NCBI RefSeq assembly: GCF_006345805.1
Contig: NW_021829832.1
Location: 895,062 to 959,061, forward strand
Direction of reading: 5' to 3'
DNA length: 64,000 bases
Source: Octopus sinensis
Taxonomy: Eukaryota
In this document: positions 2,750-45,899 of the stretch, piece after piece
Layout of the letters: each line of letters begins with the position of its first letter
How positions within the stretch are numbered: the stretch's first letter is position 1
The notes under the pieces: generated by a model
Seen by the model: only the letters and a program-made list of their open reading frames with translations
Databases searched by the model: none
Told to the model about the DNA's origin: nothing
Translations under genes and position numbers: made by a program

Positions 2750-3720
2750 CAGACACGTCGCTTTCCGGATGATTTTCTTCGTTATACACCTCTACGCTCC
2801 TCTGGAGATGGCGATTTTCTGGAGGTTGTCTTTTTATAGTTTCATTTCAGCATTTTGTAGGTCATTTTGTATGGATAGTGGCACAGTTATACGTTGTGTG
2901 CTTCGAAAACAGCTGGTGCTTAGCCATTGTGTGGTTTGCAAAGGCGGCAGGATCCATTCTTAAGATATGTCCCTATCGACCATTCCCTTTAATGGTCCCC
3001 AAGCATTCAAATTGAAATGTAGCGTATAGTGTTGTCGATTATCCTCGGATAGCATACTTCCAGTATGGATTTTAGTTGTCGTCTGTGAAAACATTTAGGT
3101 TTTGACCTCGTTCAGACCCCTCGTTCCCAAGTTGTATAGCAGTATACGCAGAAAAAATGCGTAGTATAGTCGCATTTGCACACGTATTGGAATTGGCGTG
3201 TATTTTAGCCATTTTGAAGTTAATCTTTTAAGTGCACGGATCGAAAACATTTTTCTTAACTTGTAATCATCCCAGTCTCCAAGTAGTGATCTGTTCTTCT
3301 ATATTTCACATTTGTCAATTGACTTTCTTTTTTGATAATTGTGAGGTCGGACTTTGGTTCCTATACTTTTAGAAACCATTTCCCGAATACTCCAGGGACA
3401 CGATTGAGCGCTTTTTTGATCTCGATTTTTTCCAATAAAAAGTCTACTTCATCCGCTTAGATCAGTTCTGTGATCGAACTTAAGCAATTTTGCTTTTATG
3501 TCATTGATAGCAGTCTTCAGGTGAATAACAAATAGTATTGGCAATAAGGAGTTGCCTTTTGGGGTACTAATATGTGTTTTGAAAATTAGGTCAACGATTT
3601 GAAGAAGGGCGCTTTAACTGAGGACGTAGCCAGGACAATAATGCGACTTTAAGAAGTGAGTAGTAAAACTTTCAACTTGATGTCGAAAGTGGGTAGGAAG
3701 TGGATTTTGTTGCTATATTC
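2750..3720 (-). mobile_element. Degenerate RTE-like non-LTR retrotransposon fragment
   Basis: Minus-strand pieces TPKGNSLLPILFVIHLKTA, ADEVDF, SLLGDWDDYKLRK and FHRRQLKSIL align with the element at 50770-51905. Frameshifts and stops present. Confidence 0.7.
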
Positions 3721-3844
3721 TGTGATGAGAAGGCGTCTAAAAAAATAACGAAGATTAATTCAGCAAGATATAGTGTAAGTTAAAAGTCCAGTCGAATTAT
3801 TAAGGAAATTTGTAACTCAGATATAACTTTCAAAAATATTAATT

Positions 3845-4567
3845 ATGATGACGTGTTTTTGTTGTTTGTTGTTTTCTCTAATATTTGTTGATTGCTCAAG
3901 TTTATAATTGAAAATCAAACTCGTAGATGAACAATTTGTAAATGTCGGATCTTGTATTAAACTATTGAGTGATCGATATTCTGTTAGACTTCACTCTCAT
4001 GATCTACGATACGGCTCGGGGAGTGGATTGCAGGTTCACTTGATTATTTTTGTATTTGTTCAGTCGGTGACAGGGATAGACTCGGTGACATCGCATAACA
4101 GTCATTGGGCCATCAAATCCGACAATCAAATACACGGGTTGTACATTCAAGTGTTAGTCAAGTGACCACGTTGAGTGCAATTCGGACGTGCAACTAGTCC
4201 ATACAGACACTGGTCAATATCTCCATTCAGAAGACATTCCGTCCCCATTTTCAGGCTGTCAGGAAGTGAGTTGTTCCAACCAATCTGGGGACGGAAATGA
4301 GTGGGTCGTCGAATGCCCCGGAGAGTTCTGGAATAGAAATGACAAAGTGCACTTGCGACATAAATTGACTAACAAGTTTGGATCCTTCTTATATTTTGAT
4401 ATCTTCACGTGTCTGGCAAAAAGTATGGGAACCCACAGGATCAATTCGAGATTTGCGCAGTAAAGGAGAGGTGGAAGTCGACGGGGTGGACTGCAATGGA
4501 GGGGGTCTACGTCGTCAGCAACAGACCTGGGGGGTCGTGGAAGGATCGAGCTTATAATGAACTGTGA
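3845..4567 (+). CDS. SDF2: Stromal cell-derived factor 2-like MIR-domain ER protein (4 introns)
   Basis: Signal peptide; GSCIKL..RLHSHDLRYGSGSGLQSVTG; YLHS; WTAMEGVY; C-terminal YNEL (KDEL-like). Introns of 27, 30, 25 and 23 nt; the last is apparently GT-TG. Confidence 0.9.
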
Positions 4568-5388
4568 TATTGCTTTACATTTTTAATTTTGAATGGAACT
4601 TAAATGATTTTTGGGTTAGTTTTAGACATCCGGTATTAATTCTAAGCCCTCATTTTGTATTCTCTTTGGCAATTTGTTTTTGACATAGTCATTAAAAGTA
4701 TTATGTCAGTATTGCCAACATGAACGAGTTAACTGTTGCCCTGGACAGTGCGAGTTACTCAATTATTATTTGGTATATAAACAAGGAGATTGAAAAAATC
4801 TGAGTGTTTCCTCACTTGCAGGCAGTTTGACATGGAAGGGAGTGGAGCCAACCTCGTCGGTGTGTAGGCCGCAAAGACATGTTTGTTAGGCCGAAATGGT
4901 TAGGCCGAGACGTTGGGAAATTCCGATTCTCAGCGATTCCTCCAAAAGGCAAGCAGCTTCTTATATTAATGTAAATAATATTTATTCTTAAGTTTAAATG
5001 TAAGTGTAGAAAAACAGAAAAAAGTCACTACTACACGTATTTATAACACAGCACTTCTGCGAAGACAGAAACACGTATGTAACTGAGCCTTCACTTGTGG
5101 CATCCATGAACAGAGCAAGTTAACTATTTAATTAATTCCGAGATAGGAGGTCCTTTTAATTTCTCTTTTCTTATAGTTTCTTTGTATTTGAGATAAGTGG
5201 AATAGAGGGAGATCACCTCATCAAAAATACGGAGATGGCTGGGCCTTTTTTCTTATAATAAAAATTACTAATTTATATTAACAGTAAATAATTGAGAGTA
5301 GAAACGCTTAAAATTATTTTATATTAAGACAGCCGCTGTAAAATAAATAAAAAGTCGAGTTCACGTGACTGAAATAATTTCTGTTGCA

Positions 5389-8024
5389 ATGAACAAAACC
5401 AAGTAAAATAAAATAAATATCGAGTTATGGCATCATCGACACTTTCAAGTCAATTTTTACAGGCGGGCCGATTAAAGCAACGAAGGACGGAAAATCGGTG
5501 ATGTGCCTATGCGCTGGCTCACTCAAAGTAATATCCATCTCGACTGGGCGGGAGACCTATTCATTTGCCGAGGTTCACTAAACATCGAATTTGTAGGAAG
5601 AAGATCCCATCACTCAATTCAGTCTTTCCTCAGATGAACAGGTAGTCTCTCCTAACATTCCCAGTTCATACTGACTGCTCACCAAAGTCTGCTTCTCCGC
5701 CATTGGAGTTGGCCAGGGGGGAGAATAAACAAAGTATGGAAGTCGGGACATTCCTCTGCAATCAGTTGCCTCCATGTCCACTCCTCCACACTTGTGTCCG
5801 GGGGGTGTGACCACGTTATTAGACTGTGGGATGTCCAACATTTTTACTGCACTCACACACTGAAAGCACATTCGTCCCCCATCGTGTTAGTACTTGGGCA
5901 TATTCCAGAACATTTCGAATTATCGACCAACTGCTCTTCTCTGTCGGGTCAGAGGGGGAAGTGGTTGTCTTCGGCTTGCTGGAAGGAGATCTGAAAGCAC
6001 GGATCAGTCTCCACACTGCTCCTGTCACTGACTGTACCTTCCACGGACACTACTTCTGCAGGTATGTCGACTTGTAGTACGCAGTGTGTCCAATGACTCC
6101 ACCATGTCCTTGTTCGACCTGCACTCACTCACTTTGGAGAGGTCTCTGGCCACTCACGAGGAAATGCAGGCAGTGCTCTCCACCAAGGATGGGCTGCTCA
6201 CTTTCGGGTGCTGTGGTAGACTTGGTGAGTCATTCATAGGGACTGCTGTTTTGTGGGATGTGGAAAGGTCGTCGATCCTGCGCAAGTCGAAGGTAGGTGA
6301 CTATTCTATCAATTCGGTTGCATTCCTGGGGGAGGAGGGGATGTATATTGCTACCACTACTCACAATACTCTCCTCATCCTCGATCATTCTCTCCAACTG
6401 ATCAAACAGGTGCGAGTCTGTATGTCAGTGCAGATTCCCGGTGACTATGATGGTGTTGTCTCGGTGGCATTTGTGGGGAAGCATTCTCGCAATATTGCAG
6501 TGGCAAGTTCCACTCTGAGTGTCCTCCGACTATTTTCTGTGTTTGGTGGTCATTCGGTCAGTTATACTCATCACACAACTCATCTCCTGGCTGCTCGTCC
6601 CTCTCACGACAAACAATTTATAATTTCTGCGTCGAAGGATGGAATGGTCGTCGTGTGGAGATTCAACGAGGAGGACGAGTCTTTATCTGTGCACAGTGTG
6701 GCCACTGGACATACTTGTGGTGTCAATCTGCTTGATTTTGCACAGTCTGATTGTCGGTGTAATCGAATAGTGGCGGGTCCTTTATTCTGAGTGCCAGTGG
6801 GGAGGATTGTCACGTCAAGATGTGGCCGATGGGGACAAAAGTATTGACTGCCCGAAGGACTGTCCGGGCTCACGCTAAAATGGTGACTGGGCTGGTTATT
6901 TCCCCCAACGACGAACTGTTTGCGACATGTTCCAGAGACAAGTTAATTAAGGTTTGCTTGTGTTGAGAAAACTCAGCTTTGGAATATTTCTAACTTTGAA
7001 TTGGTGTCTCTTTTTCGGGGACACCTCAAAGCTGTAATGTCCATTGCGTTCTCTCCCTTCGACAAAGTCGTGTTTTGTACTGATTATAGGTCCTGGCGAG
7101 TGGCTCTACTGATGGGAGTATTTTCATTTGGTCACTGACAAGTCGCACTGTCCTCCTTACTTTGGACGGGCACGACAAATCTATTCTACACATTCAATTC
7201 ATCAGCAGAGGCACTCAACTCATGACCAGCGGTGGTGATGGACTACTCCGTCTGTGGGCAGTCAAGACAAGGGAGTGTATAAGAACATTCGACGACCACA
7301 AGGAGAGGGTCTATTCCTTTGATTTTAACGCTGATGAATCACGTTTTGTTTCTGCTGGTTCGGACTCGGTCATTCACGTTTGGCGGGATTTGACTGAACA
7401 AGACCGCCAACAAGAATACAACGATAGTCAGGTCCTAAACACCAAGTCTGCATGTCACTTTATTTAATAGAAAGCAAAAGCTGGATAATTATATCAAAAC
7501 TGGCCAAGTCGTGGAGGCCTTTCCTTTGACGCTCGAGTTGGAGAGGCCTCAGTGTCTCCTTCAAATAATTGAGAGTTTTTTTGTTTTTGATTACTTCAGA
7601 ATTATATAAGGACGGGAATTGTGCAGAAATTCTCAGAGAATGTCTCGAGAACTTATCCAGTTCCAATTTGGGTTGTTTTAGCTATTTTCACGCAGATAAT
7701 TTGCTGGATTACTGTCTCGCTTGGAACAGTAATACGAGGACGTGTTTTCATGCACAGCTGGTTTTAGCTGCATTGCTTAATGGAGTGGTACCTGAGGAGT
7801 TGATCTCTAAAGCGGGAAATATCCGCTCAGTTGTGGACGGATTAATTTCATATCAGCAAAGACATTTCCGCAGAGTGTCTAGTTTGGTCGAACAAACGGG
7901 CTTTTTGGAGTTTGTTGCTGCTAATTTTGTTGGGTTCACTTCCGAAAAGTCTGTGGATAGGGACGATGATGTAAATGTCCAATTTGACTTGTCCGACATG
8001 ATTAGAAATAGTGCTGCTCAATAA
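5389..8024 (+). CDS. TBL3: WD40-repeat SSU processome protein TBL3/Utp13 (~13 introns of 22-26 nt)
   Basis: Multiple WD repeats (GH..., LRLW, HVW) and a C-terminal Utp13 domain (LLDYCLAWNSNTRTCFHAQLVL..YQQRHFRRV). The frame is continuous after removing GT-AG mini-introns. Confidence 0.88.
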
Positions 8025-8099
8025 AGTGATTATATTTTCACTTGAATATATCAGTTAATCTTATTAATTACGGTCGCAAGCAAATTATCACTTTAGAGA

Positions 8100-11000
8100 C
8101 TAATCTACCATTGATTGATTTTGCAGTGCATGCTGTCAATTGGTGTTGATTTCAGACACCCCGATATAATGCGCATAGTCTTGTTTTGAACTGATTCAAG
8201 TCCCACGCTGGAGCTTGTAGATAAGGAGGGAGGCCAGTCCGGACTTGCGTAACAGTGTCAAGTTGTTTGTGTCGTTGGCCGGAAAGTCGTGAAAATAAAG
8301 GTTGAACAAAATTAAAGACAGGAGTGAATCCTGCGGTTTCCAGTTTAGGAAATCGTGTTGTTTAGAACAATTATCCACGAGGGAGACGTAATCCATGCGA
8401 CACGATAAGAAGTTTGCAAGCCAGGATTTTAGTTTGAGCTTAGATTGTTGCGAGAATTTTGTTGGTGAGACTGCATCGAGGGACGCTGTCAAAAGCCTTA
8501 GAGATTTCGATGAAAGCTAGGATTGTTCATTTTAGCAGTCTCTTCTCATTAAAGCCGTCCATAACTAATTGGGAAAACTTTTTTAAGTGAGTAGCTGTTG
8601 AGTGCAATGGTTCGAAACCATGTTGGAAGTTGGTAAGTGATTGGGTACGCGTAAAAAGATTAGTTTTTCAAGTATTTTAGCTAGCTTGCACAAAAAAAGA
8701 TTGGGCGGTAGGACCTTGGAATGCCAGGCGGTATTTTTTGTTTGATCAATGGAATAATACATGATTTCTCCAGAGAAACGGAATTTTGTTTTTTGCAACG
8801 GAATTGTTGTAAATAGAGACTATGCCATTAATGATGTTAGGGCCAAGTCTCTTAAGGTGATAGATTAAAATGTTGTTATGACCCGTTGCGGAGGAGTTTT
8901 CGAGTTTTTAATATATTGCGAGACTTTGTCTGCAGAAAAAGATGGTATAGTTCCCGTGAGTGATAGCTTTTTCAGAAATTTTGCAACCTTTCGATCATTT
9001 TTGTTAGATGTTTTGTTACTTAATGATGCGTAATATTTCAGTAGCGTATTTGGTGTTTGAATGAGAAATATCAGATTCATAGTATTTTGGCTTTTCATAC
9101 ATCAAACCATTCATGTCTTTAGGGGTCTTCCAGATTTTAGAGCTATTTGATCCGTAGTCGATTGAGACGATAAATTAAGTCCACTTGGAATCTGCGTGCA
9201 GATTTATAGCAGCGGTGATTTGTTAGTTAGAGAACCCGATAAAGTGCTCTTTTATCTGCTTCAGTTTGTTGCGAGTTTATACGAGGCAGTTTATTTCGTA
9301 GCTGTAACTATTGGCGGCTCTGGACGATGCCACTATTGGCGGCTCCCCAGAGACGATTTTAAGAGACGCTTTGTTGTTGGCACCTGCACTTCTGAGGATT
9401 GGATTGGAGATTAACCCCACCAAATCCGAATTAGTCGGTCTCAACATTCCTGATAAACGCCTTGACGACCTTTCATCGTCCCTCCGCACTGGTCTTGGCC
9501 AAGTGCGCGCGACTGACGTAAATGATCTCCGGATCCTTGGATCCCCCATCCTGCCGACTGCTATTAAGACTGATCTTCTTACCAAACATTCCACGTTAAC
9601 TATTTTGCTGGACCGCCTCACGTTTTTGGACAGCCACGTCGGCCTGTTTCTTGCGAGAAACTTTTTCGCCCTGCCTAAATTACTCTACTCCCTCAGAAGT
9701 GCACCTTGTTACCTACATGAGGACATTCTCACTGATCTCGGCGACTCCCTTCGTTCGAAGATCGAATCAATATGCAATGTCGAGTTCGACTCTTTGGGGT
9801 GGAGTCAAGCTTCACTCCCCGTACGCCACGGAGGCCTTGGAATTCGGTGCCCGAATGATGTTGCACTGCCTGCCTACCTGTCGTCACTTTCTTCATGCCA
9901 GAAACTCATGGGCACGGTTCTCCCAACCGATTTTGAACATTACGTGCCTTCTGAGTTATCATCGGCGGTCGTAAAGTGGCACTCGCTAGGACTGGAAATC
10001 CCAGAGGATCAGCATAAGCAATTTGTTTGGGACGAAGTCCGCCTACAATCCCGAATCCATTCTTTACGTAAATCTCTCGACCAACACCGCTTGGCCTGCT
10101 TTGAGACGGCATGTCGCTCTCACAGCGGAGCCTGGCTAAATGCCACTCCACTGCCGAGCATTGGGAACCTTCTGGACTGCGAGTCCGTACGCACTGGAAT
10201 CTGTTTACGTCTCGGTCTTCGCCTATGCGAGCCACATGTCTGCCGCTGTGGCGCGAAAATCTGTCGCTTTGGATTGCACGCTCTATCGTGCAGACGCAGT
10301 GCTGGTCGCATCCCGCGTCACGCCGCTCTTAACGACCTTATCAGGAGAGCCCTGGAAGTCGCCGGAATCCCCTCCTTGCTTGAACCCACTGGGATCGATC
10401 GGGGGGACGGAAAAAGGCCTGACGGGATAACTGTGTTTCCTTTCAACAGGGGGAAGCCTCTCACCTGGGATGCCACGTGTGTGGACTCTTTCTCGCCTCA
10501 GAACCTGCTGATGTCGGCCTCCGCTCCTGGATCTATTGTCACAACCGCGGAATGCAAAAAGATGCGGAAGTACTCCTCACTTACGGAGAAGTTCCAATTT
10601 CTTCCATTCGCGGTTGAGACTTCCGGTTCCTTGGGCAGTAAGACAATCAGCTTCGTTCAGGAGATCGGATCCCGCATGTCTGCCATCACAGGCGACGCCC
10701 GCGAATCGAGATGGTTTTTCGAGCGGATATCCCTTGCGATAGTACGCTCTAATTCTTTCTCGATCGCGTCGGCTTCCCGCACTTGAAGCTTTTAATTAAT
10801 TAACTTGTAGTTATTGGTTGGTTTTCATTAAAAAAAAAGTTTAGCTGTAACTTGGACGGGATTTTTTTATTGTTCCTTAAAGATGAATTTTTGGAATTGG
10901 AAATGATAAGAGGGTTTAGGTGATCGACTGCTGCATCTGTCGAGCGAAAGCTGTTGTTGTTGAAATCATTTAGAAAATTTTTTTGAGCTAGACGGTATTC

Positions 11001-11520
11001 GTCAAAAAACTCTTTTGTAGTTACTGTAACAGCGGCGTTGTAGGTCAATGTTAGATATCAGAGCATTCTCGATTTCGATTGGGTTATGGTCAGTGGTCAG
11101 GTCATAAACGATCTTCCAGGAGGTGACAGAAGTCAAAATTTGAGTATACAATGAAATGTTGGGAAAGAAAATTGCGTTGCTTTTTCTCTACGGGGTTATG
11201 GTATGAGATGTATATATTGATCAGTCTCCTGGTTGAACACTCTGTAGAGACCGTTATAGCTGTCTACTCAATCACTATGTCATTATCGATTTTCTAGTAG
11301 GCTTATGATGTGCAGTTAGTGAATAGGCTTGATTTTCTGATAAGGGTTAAAAGGCCGCCGCCATTTAAAAAGTACGGTCTTTCTCGTCGGATGTATGAGT
11401 AACCCGGGAAGTCAAGCTGACGGTTTTTGGATGAGAGCTTTGTTTTTTGCACTAAAGAAATGCTCTTCTTTAACATACAATTCAGTCAGTACTCTTTTTT
11501 TATAACATGTGCGCTAGTCG
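8100..11520 (-). mobile_element. Decayed APE-RT LINE interrupted by a CRE-like insertion
   Basis: Endonuclease-like ISLVQKTKL..FPGYSYIRRERP..GGG (~11350-11470) and TTDHNP (~11080); RT pieces LKSWLANFLS and PQDSLLSLILFNLYFHDFP; many stops. Confidence 0.7.
9310..10841 (+). mobile_element. 5'-truncated CRE-like non-LTR retrotransposon (RT C-terminal half plus RLE endonuclease)
   Basis: 491-aa ORF with LDDATIGG, LPVRHGGLG, CRC..H..SC zinc knuckle, RH, KRPDG and ETSG; A-rich tail; 11-bp TSD tagctgtaact at 9299-9309 and 10842-10852. Confidence 0.85.
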
Positions 11521-11584
11521 TTGTCTACTCGAATAAATATTTTAATTGATTTTTCATTAATTAAACAGTGGTGGATTAGTCAAC

Positions 11585-14500
11585 TTAACATTCGATTTTT
11601 ATTAATTTTGAATCTGCAATGAGTCACTTTACAGAATACGCGTTGGTCGTCTTTTTCTTCGCTCTTCTGGACTCTTCTTGAAAGCTTGACCTGTCTTAAG
11701 AGACTCGAGTAGTGAATCAACAATTCCTTCTTCTCCTTTGGATACTAGGAAAATGTCAAATTGGAGAAAGAAATTCCACCGGTAAGTTTAATTTTCTTTT
11801 TCTCTTCTTCTGCTTTTTCTTTGGCAATTGCAGCTCTTTCTTTCTTTTCCTTGGCAGCTTTTTTTTTAAGGTTGTCTTGGATTGCAGTCTAATAATCAAT
11901 TTTGAAAATCAGGAACAGAGAATTGATCAGTGAAAGTCGTGATAATCGAAAAGAATTCGTTGCATTTTATGGTTTTTTCCGCAAATGCAAAGTGAATAGT
12001 CACGGAGTGATACGTTTTTGTCATTTTCTCAAACATTTTTTCGAGTAATTCTATTTGCCTTTCCATATCTTGGAGCAGTTTCTTTTTCGTGAAGAAACCA
12101 TATTCTAACCTCAAACACTGCCACGAATTGGTCTGCTGGGTCATCCGTCTCATGCCCCGAAACGATTTGAAAAATTTTTTTGTGTTGGTTCTTAAGCATT
12201 TCAAGTGATTTAGTTACATCATCCTTGTTTACTGGCAACTGTAAATGTAAATTTACCAAGTGAAGCTTTCGAGCAAGAAATCAGCTCAGAAGGAAACTTG
12301 GCAGCTTCTGGGCATTTTTTTTCCGTCAACTGAGCAATGTAGTTAAGAAAGTTAATTGAGTTGTCAGAGGATTTTGTGTCCACCAACTTAACTAGACTCT
12401 TGATGTTAAATGCGTAGGTCGCGGAATTCCGCGAATTGGCATTTAGGATGTTTCCCACTGAAAGAATTAACTGAAAAATGTTTCGTAAATTTTCGCTCCT
12501 AACGACTTGTTCAGAAGCATCGGTGACAGTTGCAATCGCCTACGCAAATATCAGATTCAGAATTACAGTTTTAGTCTCCGCCACTAACTCAGGGTAGAAC
12601 ATACGAATGAGAATGCACTCCAGACGTTTGTTGAATGATCGGATTCCTCCGAGCTGAGCAAATTGATTTATAGAGTGCATACCACAGACAAGTATTGCTC
12701 GCATTCTTGAAGCTCCTCCATTTTTCCACTCATTTCATTAAGCATATTTAACTGTTCTGCACTCGGCAAATTCTTGATAAATTGTTCAACAATGTTTTGG
12801 GATATTATTGGAGAGTCAACTGCTAAAAACGCGCTTTTTAATTCTTGAGGAGTTTTTTTTATTTGGCCAAACATAATTGCTGAAATTAAATATTACTGAG
12901 GACAACCAAAATTTTGTGCGACTTTTCCATCCAGAACCCTCAATTCCTTTATTTTTTTTGCAGTTGAAACAGCTGAGGTTGAAGTTTCTAGAACCATCAT
13001 TCTTGCAAACACTACTTGTAGGAGTTTTGGATGCAAATAAGCTAACAGTCATTTCAATTATAGCGTCGTCGATGTATTCCTCGTCATTTAGTTTAGTCCA
13101 CAAAGAGTCTTCATTCAAAACATTTACTTTTAGCTACCAAATGAATTACTGAGTGACTTTGTCCCAATTTAGTCTTTTTGTAGGAGGTTGTTCTTTAGGG
13201 TAGATAGGCTTGGACTTCATTCCAAATGGCAACACTGGCTGGATTCCCTTTCCTCCAATCTGAGGAGGCGAACTCCCTCCCATCATTGGCGGTGGTGGGG
13301 CTACTCCTCCCATCATTGGTGGTGGTGGGACTACTCCTCCCATTATTGGTGGTGGTGGTGGGACTGCTCCTCCCATCATTGGCGGTGGTGGGGCTACTCC
13401 TCCCATCATTGGTGGTGGTGGTGGGACTACTCCTCCCATCATTGGTGGTGGTGGTGGGACTGCTCCTCCCATCGTTGGTGGTGGTACTACTCCTCCCATC
13501 ATTGGTGGTGGTGGTGGGACTGCGCCTCCCATTATTGGTGGTGGTGGTGATGGGACTACTCCTCCCATCATTGGTGGTGGTGGTGGGACTGCGCCTCCCA
13601 TTATTGGTGGTGGTGATGGGACTACTCCTCCCATCATTGGTGGTGGTGGTGATGGGACTGCTCCTCCCATCATTGGTGGTGGTGGTGGTGGGACTGCTCC
13701 TCCCATCGTTGGTGGTGGTACTACTCCTCCCATCATTGGTGGTGGTGGTGGGACTTCTCCCCTCATCGTTGGTGGTGGTACTACTCCTCCCATCATTGGT
13801 GGTGGTGGTGGAACTGCTCCTCCTATTAATGAAGAGACTTTTATACTTGATTCCATCAATTGTGACTGTTCAGGAACCGTTTTCGGGGGTTCAAGTTGTT
13901 TCTGTGATAATACCTTAAATATCAGTTAAAACTGAGTTGCCATTTCTTTTAAACTAGCTTCCAATTTCTCAACTTTAATCTGTAGCAGTGAAACGTTTGT
14001 CTCGAACTCTGACTTTGAAGTAAGTGCGGCAGAAAGCTTATTTTCATATTCTGTTTTTATTTGAGAAATTTCCTTTGCCGACTCTTCCAATCTGTCTTCA
14101 AAGACGGCTAATTGGTTTGAAATAAATGTATGTACAAAGTATTTCTTCAATATCCATTTCGAATAATTTATAGTCTGGATCGGGATCTAAATTACTTTTC
14201 TGGACCACGATCTGACCAACACAACACTCAATTAGTTTGGTGTACAACTCACTAAACTTACCAACATTGACGTTACTGAATCACTGACTCCTCTTTGACG
14301 AATATGAGATGTTGAAAGATGGAAATGAGATTCTTTTCGGTTCTGGATTCGGGGCGGACGTTTTTAAACGTTTCTAAACACATTTCTAGGGAGCTAAGAG
14401 TCCATTAATATCAGAATACTAAAAATCTTTTTTGCACTCCTCTAGTGAGTTGCTGAAAGCTTTAAAGTCGTTTTCTTTAACTTCGTCGAAAATCTTTACA

Positions 14501-44404: not shown

Positions 44405-45598
44405 TCACCAGGAATACACCTGCATTTTATTCTTTTTATTCTTTTGAAATGATGTTTTATTAAAATATTTATTTTTGAGAAACTTTCTTCGTTCCATGTC
44501 GAGGCGATAGTAATAGTCAAAGTTAGAAACAATGACGGGGACCGGCAATGCGATGGTGAGCACCCCAGCAACTGCGCAAAACGAGCAAATAATCTTTCCG
44601 GGAATGCCAATGGGATACACGTCTCCGTAACCGACGGTGGTTATGGTGACTATTGCCCACCAGAAGCCATCGGGAATGCTTCTGAATGGACTGTTTGGAA
44701 CGGTGGCTTCAGCAAAGTAGATCGCACTTGAAAAAGTAACGACCAGGATTCCCAGGAAAAAAAGAAGCATCATTAATTCCTGAATGGAGGCACGGAGGGT
44801 CTGGCCGAGGATTTGGAGTCCCTGGGAATGTCTCGTTAGTTTGAATATTCGGAAAACTCTCACCAGTTTGACCGTTCTGATACTCTGGAAGCTGTTTGTA
44901 GGCGACCCATTTGCGTACTTATTTCCAAGAGAAATGAAGTAAGGAATGATGGAAATTAAATCAACAATGTTGAGGAAGCCCTTGATAAACTGGCATTTGA
45001 CAGGACACAGCAAAAACCGAATTAGCAGTTCGATTATAAACCATGTTACGCAACTTGTCTCGATGTAAAAAAACGTTTCAATAATCGAATCAGTATGATT
45101 GTTCCCATCAATTTGCACACTGTAGTGAGGCAGTGTCTCAATGCAGTACAAACATATTGACAGAAGAATTACAGATATGGAAAATCCAGCAAATATTTTA
45201 GCGTAAATTGAGCTTTCAGGATACTCGAAAAATTGCCACAGCTTTCTTCTTATCAAATTTGAGGGCATCTGGGGAGTAGATTCCTCAGAAAACATTTCAC
45301 TGTCGCTAAAATGAAATACAAGCTTCGAGTCGAGTTTGAAGAATTTTATTTCGTCGACAAAAATGTCAATGTCAACATATTTTGGTTTTCTGATGACCCC
45401 TCCACTTTGGTAGTAGTACAAAATGTGTTCAAAACAGGATCGACTTCGGTCAAAAAAGTATTCATTTCTTTCATAATCGTAGAATTTAATTCTTTGCTCA
45501 GGATTTCCGAGGAGAGTATCAGGAAATCTGTTGAGGGTTGACAAATATGTCTCGAATATAAGACCGCTGACATTGAGAACAATTCGTTGATTATCCAT
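44405..45598 (-). CDS. KCNA: Shaker/Kv1 voltage-gated potassium channel, intronless
   Basis: T1 domain (LNVSGLIFET..FPDTLLG..EYFFDR..LYYYQSGG), S4 RTVKLVRVFRIFKLTRH, pore TTVGYGD and PVPVIVSNF. Confidence 0.95.
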   Translation of the reverse strand: MDNQRIVLNVSGLIFETYLSTLNRFPDTLLGNPEQRIKFYDYERNEYFFDRSRSCFEHILYYYQSGGVIRKPKYVDIDIFVDEIKFFKLDSKLVFHFSDSEMFSEESTPQMPSNLIRRKLWQFFEYPESSIYAKIFAGFSISVILLSICLYCIETLPHYSVQIDGNNHTDSIIETFFYIETSCVTWFIIELLIRFLLCPVKCQFIKGFLNIVDLISIIPYFISLGNKYANGSPTNSFQSIRTVKLVRVFRIFKLTRHSQGLQILGQTLRASIQELMMLLFFLGILVVTFSSAIYFAEATVPNSPFRSIPDGFWWAIVTITTVGYGDVYPIGIPGKIICSFCAVAGVLTIALPVPVIVSNFDYYYRLDMERRKFLKNKYFNKTSFQKNKKNKMQVYSW

Positions 45599-45899
45599 TT
45601 TCTTTACAACTTGATACACTCAATAAAGAATAAGCATCCCAAATCTACCGATTGAGACCAATTTTAATTACACTCACAGAAACCTTTAATTCGAACGATA
45701 TGTAGTTCATCGCTAAGCTACAATTAAGAGCGTACATCATATCAATAATTGATCCAGTACAAACTGAAATAGTACTCAACATGACAAGCGCTCGATAAGA
45801 AAAGATCCATTTTTAATAATTCAAAAGTGTCTTTCCAGTTTTTTGTTGAAACAATTCAGCTTATAAATAAATTGGAATAATAAAAAATTTTTGCTTCGA

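Follow-up and report, generated by a model that had tools for sequence, protein, structure and literature searches.

The window, by which is meant here the whole stretch of 64,000 nucleotides taken from the Octopus sinensis assembly (NCBI RefSeq GCF_006345805.1, contig NW_021829832.1, positions 895,062 to 959,061 of the forward strand), carries on its plus strand a gene of five exons starting at position 3845. Its product has three MIR repeats, a length within about 200–220 aa and an ER-type C-terminus, and thus belongs to the SDF2/SDF2L1 family (Table 1). Three of its four introns are of the GT-AG type, while the fourth starts with GT and ends with TG when the sequence is read directly. Further downstream on the same strand lies a TBL3/UTP13-like WD40 gene (5389-8024) whose 13 introns, all GT-AG, measure 22-26 nt. 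Spliced contigs support 12 of them; three are in-frame introns of 24 nt, two of which were overlooked by our gene finder. On the minus strand are found a tandem CCCH zinc-finger gene resembling ZFP36 (779-1129) and a gene for a formin that contains a long polyproline stretch (13146-13925), both named by eye. From 29212 to 64000 the window is an exact tandem duplication with a period of 24,245 bp (no mismatch in the 9,755 positions compared from 30001 onward), which includes a LINE fragment and a gene for a TRPM-like channel, and which is either very recent or an artefact of assembly.

Table 1. The SDF2 gene and the elements of its fourth intron, in positions of the window
Feature	Position	Strand	Basis and remarks
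Exon 1	3845..3899	+	Start predicted from the sequence; signal-peptide-like hydrophobic N-terminus
Intron 1, 27 nt, GT-AG	3900..3926	+	Removal eliminates an in-frame stop; no spliced contig across it
Exon 2, first MIR-like repeat	3927..4033	+	Predicted; frame stays open and repeat pattern fits
Intron 2, 30 nt, GT-AG, in frame	4034..4063	+	Predicted; X5 contig starts only at 4067
Exon 3	4064..4137	+	Gene model and contig alignment
Intron 3, 25 nt, GT-AG	4138..4162	+	25 nt absent from X5 contig
Exon 4, second MIR repeat and beginning of the third	4163..4375	+	Pfam MIR and PDB matches
Intron 4, 23 nt, GT..TG, phase 2	4376..4398	+	X3 and X4 contigs; homology register
Likely branch region, CTTAT with A16 (4391), and second A18 (4393)	4388..4393	+	Suggested by the A peak of predicted introns
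TG acceptor behind a T run	4397..4398	+	Its G is the only one across intron positions 7-33
Exon 5, remainder of third MIR repeat, YNEL at the C-terminus, stop codon	4399..4567	+	3mal match; X3 contig to 4531
Earliest AG after the donor, 25 nt beyond the TG	4422..4423	+	Use gives the wrong frame and 162 aa

Is the segment 4376-4398 an intron at all? Its removal gives an SDF2 of 205 aa ending in YNEL, and its retention a product of 178 aa. The cut has a single placement, for the flanking letters differ on both sides and no sliding is possible. Such an apparent 23-nt GT-TG intron had been pointed out in the preliminary description of this DNA, and the unslidable segment, the register of homologous proteins and the gap in a contig from run X3, the latter two described below, all agree with it. 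Its length, which was there called typical, is indeed in line with the other introns of the gene (27, 30 and 25 nt) and with those of the neighboring TBL3/UTP13 gene (23-26 nt). It had also been stated, correctly, that the downstream AGs ending at 4423, 4438 and 4450 leave the wrong frame: cuts to these AGs are 48, 63 and 75 nt long, all multiples of three, and give truncated proteins of 162, 157 and 153 aa, respectively. From the same donor, the frame is first restored by the AG at 4470, with a cut of 95 nt that costs 24 conserved residues. If the segment is examined as a U2-type intron, the GT donor is present at the cut, and at the acceptor there is TG instead of AG, which cannot be slid away. 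Intron 4 is therefore likely to be a variant U2-type intron that departs from the type only in its missing AG.

The junction is well placed by protein homology. Exon 4 matches PDB 1t9f (E 1.2e-12) and the SDF2-like 3mal (E 5e-12), with a Pfam MIR match below the cut-off (E 0.003), and exon 5 matches residues 154-195 of 3mal (E 0.0068) and, weakly, 1t9f (E 0.14). A homologue search with exon 4 restricted to longer proteins yielded 0 of 2 candidates. The register is gapless over the junction, running from H148 to Y154 in 3mal and from T139 to Y142 in 1t9f. Like these SDF2/SDF2L1 MIR proteins, the protein of 205 aa has three MIR repeats, an N-terminal hydrophobic stretch and a C-terminal xxEL, and it is divergent at the sequence level, none of the 150 relatives that a search with exon 4 listed exceeding 48% identity to it. 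From these 150 relatives, 89 SDF2-like proteins of 170-260 aa were kept to build an HMM, by which 91 listed gene models, namely 81 enumerated canonical cuts and 10 named ones with a few duplicates, were scored. The GT-TG model was the best of the 91 with 193.2 bits, and the cut is therefore supported beyond chance. The runner-up, a cut one codon longer, scored 183.3 bits, so that the GT-TG model is ahead of every other model by 10 bits and of every canonical cut by 18 bits. A span of 10 residues across the junction is identical in length in 80 of the 89 homologues.

Could the gene be spliced mainly at a canonical junction, with TG used in only a minor share of its mRNA? Three such junctions restore the frame with canonical ends: an AT-AC cut at 4401-4432 (175.0 bits), a GC-AG cut at 4416-4438 (173.6 bits), which even has the typical length of 23 nt and gives 205 aa, and a GT-AG cut at 4423-4460 (156.9 bits). 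The last one had been named in the preliminary description as one that would refute the TG acceptor if used; it does restore the frame, but falls far behind 193.2 bits, and the GC-AG cut of 23 nt had been overlooked there. All of them are 18-36 bits lower than the GT-TG model and would exchange conserved residues within the third MIR repeat for others, and, as described next, the sole spliced contig runs through their sites ungapped. We regard a canonical main junction as very improbable.

Spliced contigs were sought in assemblies of sequencing runs (X2-X7), in two comparisons, the one covering window 3700-4800 with four runs and the other 3300-13100 with X2, X3, X6 and X7. The RNA origin of X2, X3, X5, X6 and X7 is taken from their intron-less contigs alone. 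A contig of X3, 277 nt long, extends over 4232-4531 with flanks of 144 and 133 nt around a single gap of 23 nt at 4376, and differs from the window in two other letters at a depth of 6.55. The segment 4376-4398 is thus precisely absent from a contig of transcript type, provided that the run is of RNA, and the junction 4375|4399 is known from this one low-depth contig of one study, in a kind of assembly that drops rare forms. X5, which belongs to the same study as X3, has a contig over 4067-4375 that lacks the GT-AG intron 4138-4162, and therefore both runs look RNA-derived. Since the sole gap of the X3 contig is that of 23 nt at 4376, and the sites of the GC-AG, GT-AG and AT-AC cuts are all ungapped there, use of 4416-4438 is excluded for this contig. 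The expectation that the mRNA might show 4423-4460 instead was likewise not borne out at the contig level, where X3 has 4375|4399. Contigs of X2, X6 and X7 gave no piece on SDF2 and have no bearing on it in either direction. In these three runs, which are 96% identical to the window, the neighboring TBL3/UTP13 gene is spliced: 11 of its introns appear among the alignment rows listed (one of them over two rows), and the twelfth follows from gap totals of 289 and 122. All 12 fit GT-AG introns of 23-26 nt, with two of them placed 2-4 nt off the listed position. Among the contig-supported introns nearby, therefore, 13 of 14 are GT-AG (23-26 nt) and one is GT-TG. Taken together, the segment 4376-4398 is very probably a real intron, and the TG-ending form would be the main and only functional mRNA of the gene.

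The true acceptor might still be TAG, if the T at 4397 was introduced by the assembly or belongs to an allele that the animals behind the spliced contig did not carry. The sole full-length match of the window, X1, may be the source itself, DNA of a passenger in an assembly probably has a lower coverage than that of its host, and the acceptor of X3 is seen in its spliced form alone. However, X4, which comes from another study under another organism label, provides an unspliced contig over 3747-4584 at a depth of 69, with 61 other letters in 838 and thus 93% identity to the window. Within the intron, X4 is changed at 4384, 4387 and 4394, and shows no change at 4376-4377, at the branch region 4388-4393 or at 4397-4398 among the 40 of 54 rows of differences listed; these rows are unbroken by position up to 4426 with none beyond, and the unchanged state of 4397 is deduced from this order. 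At the 7 listed exon sites where X4 differs from the window, X3 agrees with the window in all 7; X3 is therefore bracketed by the window and X4, to the former of which it is nearer. TG would then be the simplest state of the acceptor for the window, X3 and X4 alike, as far as can be judged from aligned letters. The SDF2 locus is single copy in the assembly (G000) by both DNA and protein searches, which also counts against an artefact. An introner or other mobile intron would be expected in many near-identical copies, and these searches covered the gene as a whole. Of the options that had been left side by side in the preliminary description, a sequencing error is unlikely in view of this independent DNA contig without a listed change at 4397-4398, and a private change from TAG to TTG is unlikely since X4, only 93% identical, shows no AG there; a genuine TG acceptor is the one that the X3 junction and X4 support. 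An artefact of either kind appears quite improbable to us. It is to be noted that retention of TG between the window and X4 counts against an error and is no sign of selection, 3 of the 23 positions having changed.

If the intron is real and ends with TG, is it removed by the ordinary spliceosome? SDF2 acts in the ER and is linked to ER stress, so that IRE1-type removal in the manner of Xbp1 or HAC1 comes to mind. IRE1 recognizes the consensus CNGCNG, cleaved as CNG/CNG in loops of hairpins at both ends of the intron. CNGCNG is found at neither junction of the SDF2 segment, and the four matches in 3.2 kb, with 3.6 expected, all lie more than 900 nt away. There is no twin hairpin either (z = +0.78, 153 of 200 shuffles fold as well), and the segment opens with plain GT like neighboring introns. 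Although the intron of fly Xbp1 is likewise 23 nt, frame-shifting and of the CA-TG type (PMC4528330), the IRE1-type reading was rejected for want of both motif and hairpin, and is hardly conceivable. Another thought is a U12-type (minor) intron, and still another is U-to-A editing in the pre-mRNA. The donor motif of U12-type introns is RTATCCTT, and GGATCCTT at 4380-4387 resembles it. This look-alike, however, lies 4 nt inside the cut, a cut starting from 4380 would be 19 nt long and in the wrong frame, and two letters of the look-alike are changed in X4. The actual donor reads GTTTGG, and it is at this donor (GTTTGGAT, not RTATCCTT) that the U12-type reading fails and was rejected. As to editing, U-to-A changes of this kind are not known from RNA. 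Both thoughts appear highly improbable, even though acceptors of U12-type introns are described as variable (PMC2374985).

Whose intron is it? The introns predicted on contig C6303 are of 22-29 nt, in an assembly of a cephalopod, and proteins similar to those of Dicyema are encoded in the same assembly. Dicyemids are parasites of the cephalopod kidney with introns of about 22-27 nt (PMC2222250, PMC6543705, PMC6736024, PMC13644364). A Shaker-type Kv1 channel gene in the window (44405-45619, minus strand) encodes a protein that reaches 99% identity with one octopus-labelled protein, but no more than 54-56% with two further Kv1 proteins under the octopus label; its owner would then be a nerve-less parasite. 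Compact RPS13 genes on two other contigs, C7758 and C10384, share unusual residues and 3 of 3 intron positions with RPS13 of Dicyema japonicum (supplement of PMC13644364, compared by eye), and the tie of C6303 to these contigs consists in shared architecture only. Because of the intron sizes, the divergence of Kv1, the compact gene copies and the RPS13 match to D. japonicum, the DNA of C6303 and of the window likely comes from a dicyemid that was assembled together with its octopus host. Likely dicyemid DNA is found on five contigs of this 2.7-Gb host assembly, C6303, C9002, C9082, C7758 and C10384, with at least one protein publicly labelled as that of the host. Compact RPS13 is present in four near-identical copies (L075-L078) on C7758 and C10384, two of them inverted on C7758.

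To see how intron ends are chosen in this DNA, introns were predicted by a small gene finder on 664 kb of C6303; the finder was seeded with these same genes, and the statistics are therefore partly circular. It recovered 10 of 12 TBL3 introns, and left SDF2 uncalled in its canonical-only mode. There are 756 distinct predicted introns of 22-32 nt with a mode of 25, and in 724 of them the acceptor is the first AG that ends at position 22 or beyond. An A peak is found at position 17 (66% of 124 predicted 23-mers), drifting slightly with intron length within a zone of positions 16-19, in agreement with PMC13644364, where a weak A stretch is described. In the SDF2 intron, position 17 is T though it is the commonest A site in 23-mers, and the A's stand on both sides of it. 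A non-AG G at position 22 or beyond is skipped in 191 of 594 predicted introns when an AG follows; AG is therefore preferred, and TG looks like a fallback. In SDF2 the next AG ends only at position 48. A next AG at 48 or beyond would hold for just 230 of the 756 predicted introns, and lack of any other G in positions 16-33, which was noticed post hoc, is comparable in only 39 of the 756 canonical introns.

Are there other such introns? Two candidates were picked by eye from the finder's list on C6303. One is a 25-nt GT..TG segment in a Rab7 gene (L030:780-804, plus strand; C6303 about 555,841-555,865), whose removal joins residues 60|61 of Rab7a exactly, while its rival, a 28-nt GT-AG cut at 762-789, is in frame too, but comes one residue short and lacks a conserved MQ. 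The other is a 26-nt GT..TG segment in a CK2-beta gene (L045:298-323, minus strand; C6303 about 305,359-305,384) that joins residues 97|98 exactly; an in-frame AG lies 6 nt downstream and would delete two residues. Further on the list are a candidate 23-nt GT..TG segment with the top finder gain of 10.6 in a gene without an assigned identity (L012:4877-4899, plus strand) and a candidate non-AG end in a second Rab7-like gene (L016:6754-6781, minus strand). In a blind test over the 664 kb of C6303, which had no statistical power, TG was not in excess among non-AG ends, with 11 against 8.1 expected in 17 clusters, and the same holds for a wider blind set (50 against 42.4 expected in 106 clusters). 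In SDF2 itself the finder alone favored a TA end at 4401 (gain 4.1, against -0.6 for TG). Codon statistics cannot place non-AG intron ends.

TG acceptors of U2-type introns are not new in themselves. In human, they are reported for GNAS and 35 other genes, always as alternatives to a used AG and at about 0.02% of sites (Szafranski 2007, PMC2374985). This offers another explanation for SDF2, in which U2AF35 binds the AG at 4422-4423 and licenses step 1, and the upstream TG is chosen in step 2. The SDF2 intron resembles the human cases in its GT donor, in the pyrimidine at -3 and the purine at +1 of its TG, in the order of TG before AG, which is the usual one in the table of PMC2374985, and in the distance of 25 nt to the AG, inside the 28-nt limit. 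X4 has no listed change at 4422-4423, and the AG 6 nt past the TG of the CK2-beta candidate fits as well. However, chance alone often places an AG within 28 nt, as seen from the 230 of 756 introns mentioned above, and the one at 4422-4423 is separated from the probable branch A by 30-32 nt instead of about 5-10 nt in predicted introns, and has a purine-rich upstream context. Its use would truncate SDF2 at 162 aa and is seen in no contig compared, where one spliced contig spans the site and rare forms drop out. While the human TG is an alternative beside a used AG, the SDF2 TG looks like the sole functional acceptor; and while the human introns are at least 131 nt long among the table rows of PMC2374985 available, that of SDF2 has 23 nt. 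We find licensing by this AG unlikely.

Instead, we lean toward an ordinary U2-type intron whose end is found by position from the donor, with TG as a fallback where no AG is in reach. U1 and U2 would assemble across the 23 nt from the donor side, and the branch would form at A16 or A18, roughly 16-18 nt past the donor, even in the absence of a proper AG. G23, the last letter of the intron, may then dock in step 2 with the aid of the preceding T run and of the exonic A that follows. TG would serve as a fallback since there is no AG within reach until position 48. The preliminary description had already proposed that the TG is chosen by distance; this agrees with the statistics of predicted introns, and is a matter of interpretation rather than of demonstration. 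In yeast, non-AG acceptors that appear on loss of Prp18 are branch-proximal and dependent on poly(U) tracts and exonic A (PMC10711555), and such UUG-type sites are much like the one here. The yeast BG acceptors, however, require Prp18 loss (PMC10711555), whereas compact copies of both Prp18 and Slu7 are present here: each gene is found twice in the assembly, once with introns of kilobase size (C4, C14) and once in compact form (C9002, C9082), and compact Prp18 retains its conserved loop. We therefore rejected the idea that TG is used because Prp18 or Slu7 has been lost. The compact Prp18 gene itself (L064, C9002:37412-37846) has an apparent in-frame GT-AG intron of 21 nt, under the usual floor of 22 nt. 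A motif TAATATT as a required signal was rejected as well, since the SDF2 intron has it with one mismatch and X4 with two, and the Rab7 and CK2-beta candidates do not have it.

How does this intron compare with what is known from other organisms? In Drosophila, 23 of about 60,000 introns are GT-TG, 22 of which have a similar alternative splice (FlyBase; PMC4528330). GT-TG is the commonest non-canonical pair there, mostly coding and supported by RNA, and in this the fly introns are like that of SDF2; the similar alternative splice which most of them have sets them apart from it. In the green alga Micromonas, 34 TG or CG acceptors, most of them EST-validated, are found in the small introns of BOC1, and the introners IE-B and IE-D have GT-TG ends (PMC3879977). 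These are short and AT-rich with weak signals like the SDF2 intron, but are either below 75 nt in one region of a chromosome or mobile, while the SDF2 gene is single copy, belongs to an animal, and has its intron at 23 nt. Ultra-short introns with reduced signals and a weak A stretch as the likely branch point are known from Dicyema and from myxobolid myxozoans (PMC13644364, PMC2222250, PMC6543705, PMC6736024), those of D. japonicum having 22-25 nt (Q10-Q75; PMC13644364) as compared with 22-29 nt and a mode of 25 here. In the text passages of these papers the 3′ signal is reduced to AG and no TG acceptor appears, whereas the SDF2 intron ends with TG. No paper on TG acceptors in dicyemids was found by our search, the reach of which did not extend to the main survey of dicyemid introns (Ogino et al., 2010, Gene), where they may be mentioned; GT-TG and Dicyema are both absent from the main text of PMC7072748. 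TG acceptors being thus already known from human, fly and Micromonas, what is new here is the bracketing by DNA and the apparent necessity of the acceptor for a whole protein, the SDF2 TG being seemingly the only acceptor to yield one.

Few acceptors in human and fly are TG, and almost every one of them has an AG close by as its alternative, for which reason step 1 has been viewed as requiring an AG. A TG that is needed by a conserved gene, and is kept between organisms 7% apart, would point to a relaxed or position-based choice of the 3′ site in an animal with nearly minimal introns. It is conceivable, and we give the idea slightly less than even weight, that the U2 spliceosome of dicyemids defines introns of 22-29 nt from the donor, goes through step 1 without AG, and uses TG as the constitutive sole acceptor in conserved genes (SDF2, and as candidates Rab7 and CK2-beta), in several per thousand introns and with Prp18 and Slu7 present. 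If true, this would contradict the rule, derived from human data, that a TG is functional only next to an AG, and would provide a natural animal system for acceptor choice in the second step. There is also a practical side to it. The contig would be parasite DNA within a host assembly, and gene finders that accept GT-AG alone drop or truncate genes of this kind, as seen from SDF2, which was left uncalled by the canonical-only finder here. Some of the gene loss reported for dicyemids may have been inflated in this way.
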